From positions 1,536,001 through 1,600,000 of the forward strand of contig OZ241867.1 of NCBI GenBank assembly GCA_965203175.1: 64,000 nucleotides of DNA. Direction: 5' to 3'. Source of the DNA: Candidatus Latescibacterota bacterium. Lineage in GTDB: Bacteria > Latescibacterota > UBA2968 > UBA8231. Below the pieces are notes generated by a model that was not told the origin of the DNA, searched no databases, and saw only the letters and a program-made list of their open reading frames with translations. The position numbers and the translations under genes are program-made. The stretch's first letter is position 1, and each line of letters starts with the position of its first letter. This document shows, in pieces, positions 54,671 to 60,428 of the stretch.

Positions 54671-55627
54671 TCAACTGTCATCGCGATAAGGACCTGTATC
54701 AATGCCGGGTAGGGTATGCTCCAAAAGGTCTAGCGTTTGGCTGGTGAAGTACGGGTGTCCGGGTTCGGGCCAACCGAACAGGCCGCGCACTCTGGGTGTG
54801 GTGGCCGTGAAAAAGGGCAGCATGTGATCGCGTTCGCCGTAGATAAAGGGATTGGCGAACCGGGTCCAGCGATCATTATCGCGGCGACACATGGACAGAG
54901 TCCAAAAGGCGCGCTGCTTGCGCTTATTGGCAAAGGGTTGCGCCGCGTGTACTAGGTAAGACGAGTAGAAGAGAGCCGCCCGCCGCCGACCCGTGGCGGG
55001 GACCGGAGCGGACAGTTCGGTGGCTTGGCGCAGGTCTTTGAAGGATCCACCCGCGGCGTTGTCGTGGTCCAGCGCCCGCACAAAAGCGGGACCAGCTACT
55101 TTGTGCGAGCCGGGAATGACCAGCATGGGGGCACCGTCGTCTTCGACATCGTGCAGGTACACTCCCGAATTGACGTAGTCGAAACGGCCTATTTGGTCGT
55201 GGGGCGGCAGCAGGCAATTGGTGTAGTGGTCGATGTGGTAGCCCTCCCAAGGATTGTCGGGATGGCGCTTGTCAGTAGGCCCCGAGCGCATAAAAAGGTG
55301 GGCATTGCAGTAGCTGGCTTTTGCGTCCAAGCATTGCTCAAAAACGTCGAGATAAGTCTCGTTTTCTATCAGCCGATCCAAAGCCGGCGCGCCCACGGGA
55401 AATTGCGAGCGGCCCTCGGAGTGGTCGTGCGTGGTGGTGAAGCCGTCCGAGACTCCGGAGGCATTGCCGCGGTCGCAAGCGGCCAGCCATTGCTCGAAGG
55501 ATTGACCGTAGAAAATCTGTTCCATCGCCGCTAGAGCGGCATCCATCTCGTCGGCAGTGAATAGGTCGGGGACAATGATGTAGCCGTCGCGGTGGAATTG
55601 GTCGAGCTGGGCTGGCGTTAGGCTCAT
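54671..55627 (-). CDS. PhyH family dioxygenase
   Basis: LTPAQLDQFHRDGY, YHID, IPGSH, LVHAA...R. Confidence 0.88.
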   Translation of the reverse strand: MSLTPAQLDQFHRDGYIIVPDLFTADEMDAALAAMEQIFYGQSFEQWLAACDRGNASGVSDGFTTTHDHSEGRSQFPVGAPALDRLIENETYLDVFEQCLDAKASYCNAHLFMRSGPTDKRHPDNPWEGYHIDHYTNCLLPPHDQIGRFDYVNSGVYLHDVEDDGAPMLVIPGSHKVAGPAFVRALDHDNAAGGSFKDLRQATELSAPVPATGRRRAALFYSSYLVHAAQPFANKRKQRAFWTLSMCRRDNDRWTRFANPFIYGERDHMLPFFTATTPRVRGLFGWPEPGHPYFTSQTLDLLEHTLPGIDTGPYRDDS

Positions 55628-55759
55628 GGGGTCTCGATCTAGTAAGGTTGAGGTTGATTTTCAAGCGGTTGGTGGTAAGATACCGCACTCGACTAGCGAG
55701 TCAACTCAAGGAGGAAACCGGCCTTCAATGAGATTTCCGAACTTTTTCTCCTTCGTCTT

Positions 55760-55787
55760 TGAACCTGTACTTTCCGGGCGGCGTCTT
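55760..55787 (+). promoter_or_regulatory. putative ECF-sigma (autoregulatory) promoter
   Basis: TGAACC-N16-CGTCTT ending 18 bp before the sigma ATG; matches the AAC/CGT consensus of ECF promoters. Confidence 0.6.
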
Positions 55788-55805
55788 TATTTCCAGAGAG
55801 CCTTG

Positions 55806-56405
55806 ATGCAGATACCGGACCCACAACTCATAGCGCAAATAAAAGAACGCGATGAACGCGCATTCCAGCAGTTCTTTGAGCGCTATCGGGAGCAGATCCA
55901 CGATCACGTGCGCCGCATCGTTCGCGACGATGCGAGTGCCAACGATGTAGTGCAGGAGGTTTTCTTGCGAGTGTGGAACCGGGCCGGCCAATGGAGCGGT
56001 CGAGGGGCTGTAGCTGCTTGGCTGTTTAGCATCGCCACTCATCTCTCCCTGACTCACCTGCGCACCGTGCGAAGGCGGCGGGAACAGCGGCTGGAAATGC
56101 TGTCTGAAACCGTGGAGCAGGAGACGCAGCAAGTGCCCGAATGGATGATTGAGGCGGCGTCCGAGCGCCCCGACGCCCAAGTGGAACGGGCCGACCAGCA
56201 GCGCTGGTTGCGGCGACAAGTACAAGAACTGTCCGAGGACAAGCGCGAGGTTTTCCATCTGATCTACGACGCCCAAGTAGAAGTGCGGGACGCCGCCGAC
56301 CGCTTGGGCATTCCCGAAGGCACCGTAAAGTCGCGGCTGCACCACGGCCGCCGCCAACTCTCACAGGCTTGGCAGGCCATCCATAACCCGGAGGAGCATG
56401 AATGA
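55806..56405 (+). CDS. ECF (group 4 sigma70) RNA polymerase sigma factor
   Basis: Region 2 ANDVVQEVFLRVW...AWLFSIATH; region 4 LSEDKREVFHL...AADRLGIPEGTVKSRLHHGR; an upstream ATG at 55728 is possible. Confidence 0.93.
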   Translation: MQIPDPQLIAQIKERDERAFQQFFERYREQIHDHVRRIVRDDASANDVVQEVFLRVWNRAGQWSGRGAVAAWLFSIATHLSLTHLRTVRRRREQRLEMLSETVEQETQQVPEWMIEAASERPDAQVERADQQRWLRRQVQELSEDKREVFHLIYDAQVEVRDAADRLGIPEGTVKSRLHHGRRQLSQAWQAIHNPEEHE

Positions 56406-59400
56406 CATTGAATCTCGACGTACCTTGGCATAGGGAGTCCTTTGACCTTTTCGTCCACCAGCGACTGCCCCAGCTTTTGGGCGAGCGCTTGCCGCTGGCC
56501 GATTATCAAGTCGAACAACAGGACTCCTATACTTTTTCCATTAAACTGAGCTTGGGACTCGGCGATGCCCCGGTCGAGGTTGAGTACCGAGATTTGCCTC
56601 GGCCCGACCGCGATGGTCTTTTCCACATTGAAGGCAACTACCGGGTCGTGGTCCCCTATCCCGACCGGCGCGAACTCGCTCAAGCGCGGATTCTGTGCGT
56701 GGGCGAGCAGCTCTACGACTTTATTGACCAAAGATTGGAAGCGGCTCCTGAGCAATTGGCTTGGGATGGCGACTTAGTGCGGAGTTGGCTGCCGCTAGAC
56801 GCTTGGATGCGCGACTTCCACTTGGAGGCAACTTCCCAGTACCTCCAGGCGACCAACTGGCTTGACCGCTATACTCATCTGCGGCGGCTGACTTTGATCC
56901 CCATCGTTGACGAGCCTTTTGTCGACCAAGACGTTTTCCCCGACAGCCAATACGGCCTAGTGTGCCCCCACTGCACTCCCGAGGGACCCAATATCGGCCG
57001 AGTGCTAGAAGTAGCCCGCGGTGCCCGCATCCGCGACGGCAAGCTCGAACGGATCGACGAAGCGCCCGACAGCATCTTGGGTTTTTCGGCCTCCATGGTG
57101 CCCTTTCTCGAACACGACGATACCAATCGCGCTCTGATGGGCATCAATATGATGCGCCAGTGGACGAGCGCCGCCGATACCGCGGCACCGGTCCACGCCA
57201 CGGGTTGGTTCCGCCAGCAGCACGATCAGCGCTTGGCCTCCAAGGGCCACAAACCCGAACCAGCCCTAGTGCAGACGGGATACGAGCCGGAGGCCGCCGA
57301 CTTTTGGGGCGGGTACAATCTGCTGACCGCCTTCGTCATGTGGGATGGGGACACGTTTGAGGATGGCTTAGTCATTAGCGAGTCGGCCGCGGCGCGGATG
57401 GACTTTCCCGCCGCAGTGGGGGTGGGCGACAAACTAAGCAACCGCCACGGTGCCAAAGGAGTGGTGGCGCGCATCCTGCCCGACGCCGACATGCCGCAGT
57501 TGCCCGACGGTACGTCGGTAGAGCTCATTTTGAGTCCGACCAGTATGGTCTCGCGGCTCAACTTCGGCCAGCAGCGCGAGGCGGTCATGGGTCGCATTGC
57601 CCGAGCCGAGGGGACTCCGGCGGTGGTGCCGCCTTTCCAAGCACCCAGCGAAAAAGTGTTGAAAGCGCGTCTGGTTGAGGCGGGACTGCCCGAAGACGGC
57701 ATGGAGCAACTGACCCTCAAAGGCGCAAAGCTGCCCTATCGCAGTACCGTGGGTTGGGTGTACTGGGGTCTTCTGGCGGCCCACACTGCGGCCGAGCACT
57801 TGGAAACCGCGGTGATAGGAGTCGGCGGACCAGCGCTCGACATGATGGCCTACGGAGCTTTGAGCGAGGCCGGGGCCGTAGCCAATATCCACGCTTTGTT
57901 CAACACGGCCGCGGCTGAGCGGCCCGACGCCGATGCGCTAGGCCAGCGTTTGGCTTCTGACCCAATATCCCCGTCTCCGCCTCCGTCTCCACGCTTTGCT
58001 CTATTGCAGCAGTTGTTGGGTATGGCCGGGATACGGGCCGAGTTGGCGGGCGGGGCATTGCGCTTTGCCTTTGCCGAGCCGAAGGGATTGACCTTGGCTC
58101 GCCCCGTGTCGCACCCGTGGGCACCGGGACGCCAAGTAGGGACGGTGGGAGATCCCGGCGCTTTGCCTGCGGGGATCGAGTTCGACCCGATTCGAGGCTG
58201 CTACGAGGATTTGGTCGAAGCTAATACGCGTTTGCAGCGCATCATCGATAGCGAAGCGCCCGAGGCTCTGGTCGGGCCAGCAGTGGCACAGGTGACCCAA
58301 CGGGTGGAGGATTTTTTTATCGCGTTGTTGCGCCCGGAGCACCTCCACTTTCAAGCAAGACCGCTGTTTAGCGGCCGGGCCGCGCTTGTCTCTGGTTTTG
58401 AGTTGGAGCTCGACCAAGTGGGCCTACCCGAGGAGATGGCCTGGAATTTGTTCGGGCCTCAGGTAGAGCGGGAGATAGGTCGCGCCGAGGAAGTGGCGCA
58501 GCGTTCGCCCCGAGCGGCTAAGGTTCTGGACGCGATCATGGAGCGCTCGTGGGTGCTGCTGTACAGCGCCCAGCGGGTGCTAGTTGACGATGGCCCGGCG
58601 TCCACCGCAGTGGTGGCCTTTCGTCCGCAGCGTTTGGCCGGGGCCGCAGTGCGCGTCCATCCGCGCATTTGCCGACTGATGGAGCTAGATTTCGACGGCG
58701 ATCAGATCGAGGTGTTTTTGCCCCTCACTGAGGAAGCCCAGGCCGAAGCCGAAACTGCGCTGTCGGTGGCCGGGCACATACAGCGCGACGCGGATATATG
58801 GCGCTACGTGACCGACAACTACCACGGCATGATATGGGGCTTGGCGCAGCTTTGCCGCACGGAGGAAGGCCGCGCCGAAGTGGAACGGCTGACCGGAGTG
58901 GCCGTGGATGGCAGTCGGCTGTTCGTCAAGCACGACCTCAACCGCTTATTAGCTCAGGTGCTGCAGCGCGAGGGCCTAGAGCGAGCACTGGAGGTACTCG
59001 ACCAGCTAACGCGGCGCGGCTTTGAGGTCTGCAAGCAGTCGGGGGCCTCCTTCAATCCCTTCCTCGGTTCGAGCAAGGAGTGGCCTGAGCAACCCGAGGA
59101 AGCCGATTGGGACGAGTGGCAAATGTACAGCGACGAGTTAGTGGCAGCTTTCTACCAGCAGGCCGATTTCGACGACAACGACTTGGGGCCTTTGGCTCTG
59201 TTGTCGCTGTCGGGGGCGCGGGGCAACCAACAGCAGTTGATCCAATACGTGGGCGGCGGTCTGCTCTATCGGGAAGATGGCAGTCTATTCGCTCAGCGCG
59301 GTTGTTGGCGCGACGGCCTGTCGGTAGAGGAAACCAAGGTGCGGGCCCCGCGTGCCTTATGGTGGGGTCTGGCCGCCGCCAACCAGCGCTGGATTGAGGC

Positions 59401-59566
59401 GCAGGAAGCGGCCCAACAGCCCGTCCGTGCCGATTACCACGTTTTGGGCCGGGCCGCCAAGGCCGCGCAGCCGGGCGTAGTCTTTGCTAGAGCGGCTGAG
59501 CGCGGAGAGACCGATCCGCTGACCAGCCTATTCAGCCGGCTCTTTGCAGGGCTACCAGCGAACTAG
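56402..59566 (+). CDS. miniaturised single-chain RNA polymerase beta-beta' fusion-like protein
   Basis: RpoB blocks: [80 protein letters not shown]. RpoC blocks: LARPVSHPW, clamp helices, FSGRA, VGLP, VHP, LDFDGDQ, SGARG, RDGL, AA.RGETDPL. ATGA overlap with the sigma gene. Confidence 0.9.
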   Translation: [1054 protein letters not shown]

Positions 59567-59579
59567 GTCTCAATCAATG

Positions 59580-60428
59580 TTACTGTACCACCGCTTCGTC
59601 GCCCAAATGCTCGCGGATCCACGCTTTCAGCGGCACGTCTTCTTCTTTCGGCGAGGTGTAGCCGTGCCCGCCGCTCGGACCGGCACCTAATAGCTGCTGC
59701 CGGATCGGATCGCAGCGGTCCATCAGGTGATCCACCGTCATGTCGTCGCGTGGCCGCAACCAGCGGTAGCTATAGCCGTAAAACAGCGCCCTGCGCGCGT
59801 CGGGCGAAAAGTTGTGACCGGCTGCATGCCAGATCCGCCGATCAAAAAACACCGCGTCTCCCGCCGCCACTTGGATCGGCGTTGTGCCTACTGGATCTAA
59901 GTCTTCGTCCTCGGGCATCTCGATCTCGTTTTTCAGGTGCGAACCGGGTACTGCGTGGAAGTTGCCGCGATTGGTCTCAGTGCAGTCCGTGAGAAAGTAC
60001 GCCACCTTGAGCGAGACCCTCGGCCGGGGCTGAGTCTCCATGTCGATGTTGAGCCGCCCACTGTCTTGATGCCAACCCAGCCGCTTGCGCGCGGGCACCA
60101 CGCCGTCTAAAGGCGGAGTGACGATCAAGTGCGAGTGGTAGAGTTGAATGTGCCAGCCCAAAATCCCGAAGACCTTGGCAAACGTCTTTGGCCAGTCGAG
60201 CAACTCCAAAAAGAGTTCGTCTTTGCCGATAAAGTCGAAAAAGTTGTGCATCTGGTGCTTTTCCAGCCCCTTTTGCAGCCGGGCCTCGGCGTCGAGGCGA
60301 TCGACGACGGGGATGAGCTGGGCGACTAAATCCAAGGGCAGCACATCGCGGACGATGAAGAAGCCGTCTTCGTCAAATTGGCGGCGCTCCTCCTCGGTCA
60401 ACGTATATTGCAGGCAGGTTGCATCCAT
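59580..60428 (-). CDS. PhyH family dioxygenase (paralog of 30595-31437)
   Basis: WHQDS, VPGSH, FDRRIWH, FYGYSYRWLRPRDD. Confidence 0.9.
   Translation of the reverse strand: MDATCLQYTLTEEERRQFDEDGFFIVRDVLPLDLVAQLIPVVDRLDAEARLQKGLEKHQMHNFFDFIGKDELFLELLDWPKTFAKVFGILGWHIQLYHSHLIVTPPLDGVVPARKRLGWHQDSGRLNIDMETQPRPRVSLKVAYFLTDCTETNRGNFHAVPGSHLKNEIEMPEDEDLDPVGTTPIQVAAGDAVFFDRRIWHAAGHNFSPDARRALFYGYSYRWLRPRDDMTVDHLMDRCDPIRQQLLGAGPSGGHGYTSPKEEDVPLKAWIREHLGDEAVVQ

Follow-up and report, generated by a model that had tools for sequence, protein, structure and literature searches.

The stretch of DNA analysed here, 64,000 nucleotides (nt) of contig OZ241867.1 from a Candidatus Latescibacterota bacterium (hereafter, the window), carries two adjoining genes on the forward strand. 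The first encodes a sigma factor of the extracytoplasmic function (ECF) type with 199 amino acids (aa; 55806-56405, +), and the second a single-chain mini RNA polymerase of 1054 aa (56402-59566, +), in which a trimmed beta subunit is fused to a trimmed beta' subunit. A putative ECF-type operon promoter lies directly upstream of the sigma gene. All coordinates are positions within the window, unless a locus or contig is named.

The sigma gene, its putative promoter and the polymerase gene

The sigma factor, of about 200 aa, consists of regions 2 and 4 only, without region 1.1 or region 3, and thus fits the ECF group (group 4) of the sigma-70 family. Both regions were recognized by Pfam (Sigma70_r2, 3e-15, residues 23-90; Sigma70_r4_2, 2.4e-12, residues 133-185). 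Among the NCBIfam models, the protein exceeded the cut-off of TIGR02937 (sigma70-ECF; 99.7 bits, cut-off 42.9) and, this general model aside, stayed below the cut-offs of all of the 25 listed (98 matched), the best of which was PRK12515 (127 versus 236 bits); no named ECF equivalogue (RpoE, SigW, SigM, SigK and others) among these 25 models fits it at the curated cut-off. The nearest solved structures were a sigma-H chain (6in7), E. coli sigma-E (1or7), and SigW. Two marginal PADLOC matches for the sigma factor (E ~0.002) were disregarded.

The longest open reading frame (ORF) over the sigma gene starts at 55626 (259 aa). The upstream ATGs at 55626 and 55729 were ruled out as the sigma start by indels in relatives: the start was placed at 55806 because a 13-nt deletion and 1-nt indels in two of these relatives (L012 and L013) fall between the ATG at 55729 and position 55806. 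The linker between regions 2 and 4 carries a motif specific to the family, P-E-W-M-I-E (residues 111-116; 56136-56153), whose general form, P-x-W-[MFLI]-[IV]-[DE], was present in 92 out of the 120 sigma homologues. In the canonical enzyme, this linker passes through the RNA exit path, and the same path is rebuilt in the mini-polymerase.

The putative promoter (55759-55787, +) is formed by TTGAACC as the -35 element, 16 nt, and CGTCTT as the -10 element, and ends 18 nt 5' of the sigma ATG; by sequence, TGAACC lies at 55760-55765 and CGTCTT at 55782-55787, with N16 in between. ECF autoregulation is marked by a promoter of the sigma factor's own whose -35 element contains AAC and whose -10 element contains CGT. 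The block TTGAACCTGTrCTyTCCGGGCGGmGTCTTTA was kept in all of the close loci, the adjoining intergenic bases being variable, and CGTC was replaced by AGTC in 2 of these 19. Among more diverse loci, GAAC-N17-[CTG]GTC was found within 150 nt 5' of the sigma gene in 22 out of 25, and one further locus had N16. Measured from the position equivalent to the sigma start, the motif lay 44-67 nt upstream in 20 loci and, in two, 128 nt upstream. Its background frequency was about 0.02 per 150 nt (41 matches in 321,192 nt, the 22 true sites among them), and the consensus of 23 promoter instances was TGAACct-N-gggCGGTGTC. This conservation (19/19 close and 22/25 diverse loci) provides good comparative evidence that the motif is an autoregulated ECF promoter, and supports the proposal to that effect made in a first-pass annotation of the window.

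In the polymerase, Pfam identified RNA_pol_Rpb2_6 (1.2e-31), Rpb1_2 (8.1e-12), and Rpb2_3 (8.3e-7). The beta-like half (56402-58066, +; residues 1 to ~555) contains TFEDGLVIS (residues 318-326) and NRHGAKG (residues 347-353). When aligned by hhalign, residues 92-555 corresponded to E. coli beta 443-1342 (probability 100, E 1.4e-44), and residues 601-996 to E. coli beta' 269-789 (probability 99.8, E 3.3e-30); greedy hhalign extensions, which had a confidence of 0, were dropped. A helical hairpin (58184-58327, +; residues 595-616 and 621-642) corresponds to the beta' clamp helices, the alignment running from residue 601 onward along beta' 269 onward. The hairpin is conserved across the family alignment and helical in the AlphaFold2 model. 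In the canonical enzyme, the beta' clamp helices are the main dock of sigma region 2. The catalytic DFDGD of the beta' double-psi barrel (58688-58702, +; residues 763-767) was located within ELDFDGDQ (residues 761-768).

The C-terminal end of the chain is formed by a long helix and a conserved block (59324-59563, +). The helix (residues 975-1004, 30 residues in the model) coincides in part with the stretch that was aligned to the beta' bridge helix, the alignment ending at beta' 789, inside the bridge helix. The block, PGVVFARAA..GE.DPL..SRLF.GLP (residues 1024-1052), reached 3.1 bits at residues 1021-1040, and FARAA was present in 103 of the 111 full-length polymerase homologues over which all polymerase motifs were counted. 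This last block may be equivalent to the trigger-loop base; with only 50 residues following the helix, there is no room for a complete trigger loop.

Overall, what has been kept in the chain comprises both double-psi barrels, including the motifs that bind metal and substrate, together with the fork region, switch 2, the clamp-helix hairpin, and the bridge-helix region. The flap is lost, E. coli beta ~838-1057 having no counterpart and residue 335 running straight into residue 336. Beta' 1-268 and the rudder are lost as well, as are the greater part of the beta lobes and, save for the conserved tail of 50 residues, the trigger-loop/jaw region.

The AlphaFold2 model, built from 28 sequences, had a mean predicted local distance difference test score (pLDDT) of 89.9 and a predicted template modelling score (pTM) of 0.86. 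The top Foldseek matches were beta and beta' chains of bacteria and plastids (E down to 8e-22), and the viral library yielded large-subunit homologues only. VIA-align placed residues 1-507 of the model on second-largest subunits (Z 27.6-30.5), with a root-mean-square deviation of 2.8 Å over 488 residues at rank 1. The N-terminal 135 residues, which in phmmer matched 180 clusters at 50% identity and always at the N-terminus of family members, had been considered as a new domain, and this was overturned by the VIA-align superposition: these residues are a trimmed beta start, because they were superposed on the N-terminal part of second-largest subunits. The chain is bacterial-type by sequence, with a bacterial beta subunit as its best solved match (E 2.6e-42, versus 9e-24 for an archaeal subunit). 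Its scores were below the NCBIfam housekeeping cut-offs for both rpoB (TIGR02013, 160 versus 801 bits) and rpoC (TIGR02386, 93 versus 963 bits), and separate frames for an ordinary rpoB (1271 aa) and rpoC (1368 aa) are found at 3.92 Mb of the host genome.

The sigma and polymerase genes overlap in an ATGA (56402-56405, +), with the polymerase ATG at 56402-56404 and the sigma TGA at 56403-56405. A Shine-Dalgarno sequence for the polymerase gene, GGAGGAG (56390-56396, +), lies inside the 3' end of the sigma gene and is kept at the junction in close loci. As judged from this arrangement, the overlap is expected to couple the translation of the two proteins. All of the sequence elements named in the first-pass annotation (promoter, ATG, GGAG, and ATGA) were found in place.

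The pair is flanked by two genes for PhyH-family dioxygenases, one divergent (54671-55627, -) and one convergent (59580-60428, -), and no space is left for an additional gene between the pair and these neighbours. The Pfam calls bear out the isolated unit that had been described. Moreover, the polymerase gene had been described as occupying the slot of an anti-sigma gene in the absence of a conventional one. This is a fair description of its position, and no anti-sigma domain was found by Pfam, which at E <= 0.01 gave only the three polymerase families over the 1054 aa; no HxxxCxxC zinc motif was seen in the N-terminal sequence of the polymerase. The mini-polymerase gene has no neighbour that encodes an alpha- or omega-like subunit, and Rfam gave no match in the window.

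Both PhyH genes also adjoin the module in the close relatives L003 and L005. A consensus scan placed a sigma-70-like promoter, TTGACT-16-TATCTT, before the divergent PhyH gene at 55677-55704 (-), outside the module. It corresponds to a conserved block, GTAAGATACC...GAGTCAAC, located 5' of the ECF promoter and kept in close loci even where the sequence further upstream differs. Read on the other strand as TTGACT-16-TATCTT, this block probably serves the divergent PhyH gene.

Linkage, conservation and distribution of the gene pair

Of 8000 candidates scored, at least 568 proteins (90% clustering, E <= 1e-3) were related to the polymerase, and the source name was "hypothetical protein" in all 120 of the relatives listed. 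The module was found in three phyla, namely Latescibacterota, Armatimonadota (Chthonomonadales/Armatimonadia), and Chloroflexota (Dictyobacter). In 44 of the 46 distinct loci with enough upstream sequence, a sigma gene was located upstream of the polymerase gene on the same strand, within 353 nt in 42 loci and beyond an inserted gene in two; the proposed synteny of sigma and polymerase was therefore strongly confirmed. A Paenibacillus locus (L033; 30% identity over parts) was treated as another family and stands outside all counts, and L029-L031, which have no upstream sequence, were left out.

These loci came from two sets. In the first, drawn from species-representative genomes, 28 loci had the polymerase start and upstream DNA, and sigma was directly upstream in 26, including L020, where it seems to be frameshifted; in the two exceptions (L011 and L018), sigma is deleted. 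The second set consisted of 20 loci of the same phylum, two of them duplicates of the first set. Here, sigma was within 66 nt of the polymerase in 18 loci; in the other two it lay on the same strand, at distances of 1.3 and 2.4 kb upstream. One of these insertions (L152, 467-1612, -) is a 381-aa ORF with a marginal TPR match only; the other (L151, 4084-6262, +) comprises a small ORF followed by an ABC exporter (ABC_membrane and ABC_tran).

The distance from the sigma stop to the polymerase start was determined in 42 loci. A 4-nt overlap was observed in 25 of these, including 19 close kin of the window, and a 1-nt overlap in four; the genes were 1-2 nt apart in four loci, 11-66 nt apart in six, and 106-353 nt apart in three. 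In total, 33 of the 42 junctions overlapped or were at most 2 nt apart. No neighbour gene other than sigma was common to distant loci.

The two genes also appeared to be inherited together. For at least 14 sigma homologues, the longest contig has the same length as that of a polymerase homologue, and the sigma and polymerase trees contained the same terminal clades. Patristic distances in the two trees were correlated (r = 0.91 for 32 pairs; r = 0.80 for the 23 pairs remaining without close kin), values that were reached by none of 2000 permutations. When compared with 9 ECF paralogues of the window's genome, the 25 linked sigma factors formed one clade (ultrafast bootstrap, UFBoot, 100). In the five same-genus genomes without the polymerase, no sigma above 33% identity was present (5/5), and the paralogues of the window's genome are likewise at or below 33%.

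In intact copies, both genes are under purifying selection, as judged from the ratio of non-synonymous to synonymous substitution rates (dN/dS) against the window, which was 0.06-0.18 for sigma and 0.15-0.19 for the polymerase (10 or 11 comparisons each). The active-site blocks were the best-conserved stretches of the polymerase: D[FY]DGD was found in 100 homologues out of 111, R[HY]GxKG in 99, and [FYH]ED[GSA] in 105. Taken together, linkage, co-loss, coupling, and selection show that sigma and polymerase are a functional pair.

Within the phylum, the polymerase was present in 66 out of 168 genomes, in 19 out of the 52 of good quality, and in 21 out of 30 in the window's genus (own genome excluded). 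The whole module is present twice in one 8.4-Mb genome, in diverged copies that have a sigma each (G071:C1, 1427408-1430581 and 3368600-3371734; L134 and L135/L022); in one of these copies, the two genes are separated by a gap of 257 nt and no GAAC -35 element is found. A series of decaying copies was observed in a single genus (L011, 6001-9141; L018, 5987-8916; L032, 5926-6906). L018 has lost sigma as well as polymerase residues 16-87, and L032 is a remnant in which sigma 1-60 is fused to polymerase 751-1054 in an open frame of 373 aa.

No family member was found among viral contigs, whose 80 loci (best E 1e-15) were all distant beta-like sequences. Plasmid matches (68 records) were all below 60% identity, the features annotated under the matches listed being rpoB/rpoC, and PADLOC gave no match for the polymerase. 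The GC content of the module (0.61-0.62) was close to that of its surroundings (0.605).

Metatranscriptome contigs from three studies (runs X1-X4) cover relatives of the module at 90-99% identity, and two of them span the sigma/polymerase junction (X2, 56266-56966; X4, 56074-56540). These are assembled contigs, which cannot show transcript starts or strands, and in which uncovered stretches say nothing. In the ESM Atlas, we also observed further clusters of single proteins that combine RNA_pol_Rpb2_6 and RNA_pol_Rpb1_2 (1221-1787 aa), with no recorded taxa; single-chain polymerase forms may thus be more varied than is known.

Search for further target promoters

The genome of the window was searched for other promoters of the sigma type at several levels of stringency, in scans that would miss promoters of other spacing. 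The strict form, TGAACC-N16-CGTCT, gave 2 matches. The form TGAAC-N17-YGTCT gave 25, which by a rough estimate is about the number expected by chance, and TGAAC-N15-GGYGTC gave 8, versus 7.7 expected from composition. In a weight-matrix scan, the sigma gene's own site, which formed part of the training set, ranked first with 25.4 bits, and the next site scored 19.7 bits. The first-pass annotation had envisaged a promoter class to be traced by such a scan; the sigma gene's own site did come out on top, but no further site of this type stands out. A site before the downstream PhyH gene (~60457, -, 16.8 bits) was rejected, as it overlaps the ATG of that gene and scores like random matches.

In five other genomes, the search gave 66 matches, and in a shallow inspection of 30 of these, only the sigma site of L173 itself was found to precede a module. 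The longer gaps between sigma and polymerase contained no second copy of the motif. A filter on location inside an open frame proved weak, because antisense frames also cover true sites.

Among the 25 TGAAC-N17-YGTCT matches, 11 are coding 5' ends of paralogous secreted-protein genes, which mimic an ECF promoter (TGAACT-N16-CGTCT). These sites share a near-identical predicted signal-peptide start (MNYRSILIVCLATLGLAVAGWGQ) and are located on G000:C1, outside the window, at 581078, 1366737-1378017 (six in tandem), 4979740, 5248493, 5249354, and 6522816. Ten of the eleven open secreted-protein paralogues with WSPDG-type repeats, which by eye are TolB/PD40-like; the one at 1378017 diverges past the shared start.

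Interpretation and comparison with known systems

We tentatively favour the interpretation that the sigma factor and the mini-polymerase form a dedicated holoenzyme, and with it a self-contained transcription module. This preference is based on the conserved catalytic blocks, on the DxDGD motif that is intact in 100/111 homologues, on the clamp helices kept in an otherwise stripped enzyme, and on the absence of other visible sigma targets. We infer, as parts of this interpretation, the binding of sigma, the activity of the enzyme, the identity of the enzyme that reads the promoter, and any other transcribed targets. With somewhat more reserve, it can be suggested that some free-living and symbiotic bacteria possess a second, orthogonal transcription system made of two proteins, a single-chain beta/beta' relative of ~117 kDa (estimated from 1054 aa) and a private ECF sigma factor, which together would form a self-sustaining loop. 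Such a pair, as part of the same suggestion, might be the smallest sigma-programmed polymerase of cellular type, evolved by reduction of the bacterial enzyme.

In such a system, the operon would be autoregulated from the ECF-type promoter TGAAC-N17-YGTC. The first rounds of transcription would probably be carried out by sigma on the host core, because the promoter geometry is canonical, and translational coupling would then yield sigma and polymerase together. Region 2 of sigma would dock on the clamp-helix hairpin kept in the mini-polymerase, and the pair would transcribe its own promoter, and possibly also unrecognised targets. A mixed model, in which the loop is set going by the host core and sigma is subsequently captured by the mini-enzyme, is possible.

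Several observations weigh against a dedicated holoenzyme. No second target promoter was found in the window's genome, among the 30 matches inspected in five other genomes, or in the longer sigma-polymerase gaps. In the canonical enzyme, sigma region 4 is held by the flap tip and the beta' zinc-finger/zipper region; because both are absent here, the 17-nt spacing of the promoter is hard to explain on the mini-polymerase. Moreover, 11 of the 111 full-length homologues are without one Asp of the catalytic triad (P0084, P0108, P0114, P0119, P0058, P0060, P0071, P0054, P0057, P0064, and P0068), the variants seen in these, other than in P0054, P0064, and P0068, including NANFDGDQ, EVYFDGDQ, EVSFDGDQ, DADFAGDL, and EQDFDGNQ. 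Judging by these motifs, the enzyme may be inactive in lineages without an intact triad.

The decaying locus L011 has lost sigma and the promoter by a clean deletion and keeps an intact polymerase frame of 1047 aa; no sigma orthologue was found elsewhere in this genome, and the polymerase showed no sign of relaxed selection (omega 0.15). The correlation of the sigma and polymerase trees could result from shared descent alone, and translational coupling and co-inheritance would suit a sigma/anti-sigma pair equally well. Finally, DNA carry-over is possible in the metatranscriptomes, because one X1 contig runs from the PhyH gene across the divergent intergenic region into sigma.

The first-pass annotation had offered a choice between a private holoenzyme and a decoy that sequesters sigma. 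This choice omits a third reading that is equally open, in which the mini-polymerase gene is expressed by sigma working solely through the polymerase of the host. In a contact-free cascade of this kind, sigma would drive its own operon via the host core only, and the mini-polymerase, as its sole cargo, would act alone on DNA or RNA, like YonO. We consider this unlikely, even though it would account for the canonical geometry of the ECF promoter. On the normal enzyme, the clamp helices and the flap tip determine this promoter spacing, and the mini-polymerase has no flap. The closest solved relatives of sigma (sigma-E, SigW, and SigH) are ordinary ECF sigma factors of the host core, and the polymerase frame of L011 survives without sigma. 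The latter copy is probably silent and decaying, however, because its promoter has been deleted as well. YonO itself provides a precedent, as a single chain of ~100 kDa that is active without a known specificity factor according to the cited portion of its description (PMC5467207). On the other hand, a cascade would leave unexplained why the clamp helices have survived when nearly all other accessory elements were deleted, and why the stop/start overlap is so widely retained; it would also leave the activity of sigma without any regulator.

It seems distinctly improbable that the mini-polymerase is a decoy, that is, a core-mimicking anti-sigma factor whose clamp helices bind sigma region 2 and thereby exert negative feedback on the autoregulated operon. 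The gene does sit where an anti-sigma gene would be expected, in translational coupling with sigma; the chain has no conventional anti-sigma domain and has preserved the clamp helices; moreover, the flap, the usual anchor of sigma region 4, is gone, and one catalytic Asp is lost in the 11 homologues mentioned above (NANFDGDQ, for example). However, a protein of 1054 aa would be costly where a hairpin of ~45 residues would suffice, the catalytic blocks are the best-conserved part of the chain and intact in 100/111 homologues, and no regulon that such a switch might control was visible in the genome scans. The least probable explanation, for all that the distribution is patchy (66/168 phylum genomes, 21/30 genus genomes), that L011, L018, and L032 form a decay series within one genus, that genomic contexts vary, that one genome has two copies, and that related pairs occur in three phyla, is a backup or conflict module, in which a spare polymerase, possibly used with other sigma factors, takes over while a phage factor or an antibiotic keeps the host enzyme from working, or else a remnant of a mobile element; against it, the family has no member among the viral contigs (80 loci), no plasmid match (68 records) reaching 60% identity, no PADLOC match for the polymerase, and a GC content like that of its surroundings (0.61-0.62 versus 0.605).

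To our knowledge, all known sigma factors act on a core of five subunits and ~400 kDa. If the dedicated holoenzyme that we favour exists, a single chain of ~117 kDa would be programmed by sigma, and would reveal which parts of a polymerase promoter-specific initiation really requires; this chain has no flap, lid, rudder, or zinc finger, and lacks most of the trigger loop. It would represent a natural experiment in how a polymerase can be reduced, and its two genes and defined promoter would make a compact orthogonal system for expression. It also raises the question of how a cell benefits from a second polymerase whose only apparent template is the operon that encodes it. If the mini-polymerase were a decoy instead, it would define a new class of anti-sigma factors derived from the core enzyme.

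Among the systems compared below, none joins a cellular, chromosomal, bacterial-type single chain to a true ECF sigma factor. These systems include the canonical holoenzymes of sigma-E, SigH, and SigL, which have been solved. The mini-polymerase resembles their core in its bacterial-type beta/beta' blocks and catalytic motifs, and also in switch 2, the clamp helices, and the bridge-helix region; the sigma factor resembles theirs in regions 2 and 4 and in a promoter of the GAAC/CGTC type; the canonical core, however, consists of two chains of ~2600 aa together, whereas a single chain of 1054 aa is found here. Natural full-length beta::beta' fusions occur in Helicobacter and Wolbachia. These fusions (NCBIfam PRK09603 and PRK14844) share with the mini-polymerase the single polypeptide and the beta-beta' order, but their profiles extend over ~2840-2890 positions, and the mini-polymerase scored 158.9 bits versus a cut-off of 5372. 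Moreover, they are complete enzymes and the only polymerase of the cell, whereas the mini-polymerase coexists with normal rpoB and rpoC.

As in systems with anti-sigma factors of the RseA/RsiW type, the second gene directly follows an autoregulated ECF sigma gene, with which it is coupled in translation. The mini-polymerase, on the other hand, has neither an anti-sigma domain nor a zinc motif and keeps its catalytic residues. It is also about five to ten times larger than such an anti-sigma factor. Literature searches yielded no description of a sigma-linked fused mini-polymerase, and a term search of the main text of the ECF reclassification (PMC7826278, supplements aside) found no polymerase-linked group.

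YonO, from the Bacillus prophage SP-beta, is a two-barrel single chain of ~100 kDa that is active without a trigger-loop homologue, as stated in the portion of the report cited (PMC5467207). Like the mini-polymerase, it is an extra single-chain polymerase beside the host enzyme. According to the same portion (PMC5467207), it has only a few catalytic residues in common with cellular polymerases, whereas the mini-polymerase is 30-45% identical to beta and beta' in conserved blocks. Moreover, YonO is phage-borne, with no known specificity factor in the part of its description considered, whereas the mini-polymerase gene is chromosomal and paired with sigma in 44/46 loci. No YonO-like chain was present among the Foldseek or VIA-align matches listed, which were cellular or viral large subunits, although such lists do not rule out kinship.

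Orf6 of the yeast killer plasmid pGKL2, a 982-aa Rpb2::Rpb1 fusion (excerpts of PMC2919709 and PMC6211774), is similar in its fusion order and size, in the deletion of about half of each core, and in a lid and rudder that these excerpts report as probably missing. It differs in its eukaryotic or viral descent and its cytoplasmic location, and, as far as the same excerpts describe it, in using the small subunit Orf7 and an upstream conserved sequence instead of a sigma factor.

Finally, the polymerases of jumbo phages have a promoter-specificity subunit of their own, which is remotely sigma-like. The non-virion multisubunit enzymes of these phages, as described in part of PMC7598289, resemble the mini-polymerase in being reduced and divergent enzymes of the beta/beta' type. 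They are, however, made up of several phage polypeptides, whereas the module described here combines a single chain with a bona fide ECF sigma factor in cellular genomes.

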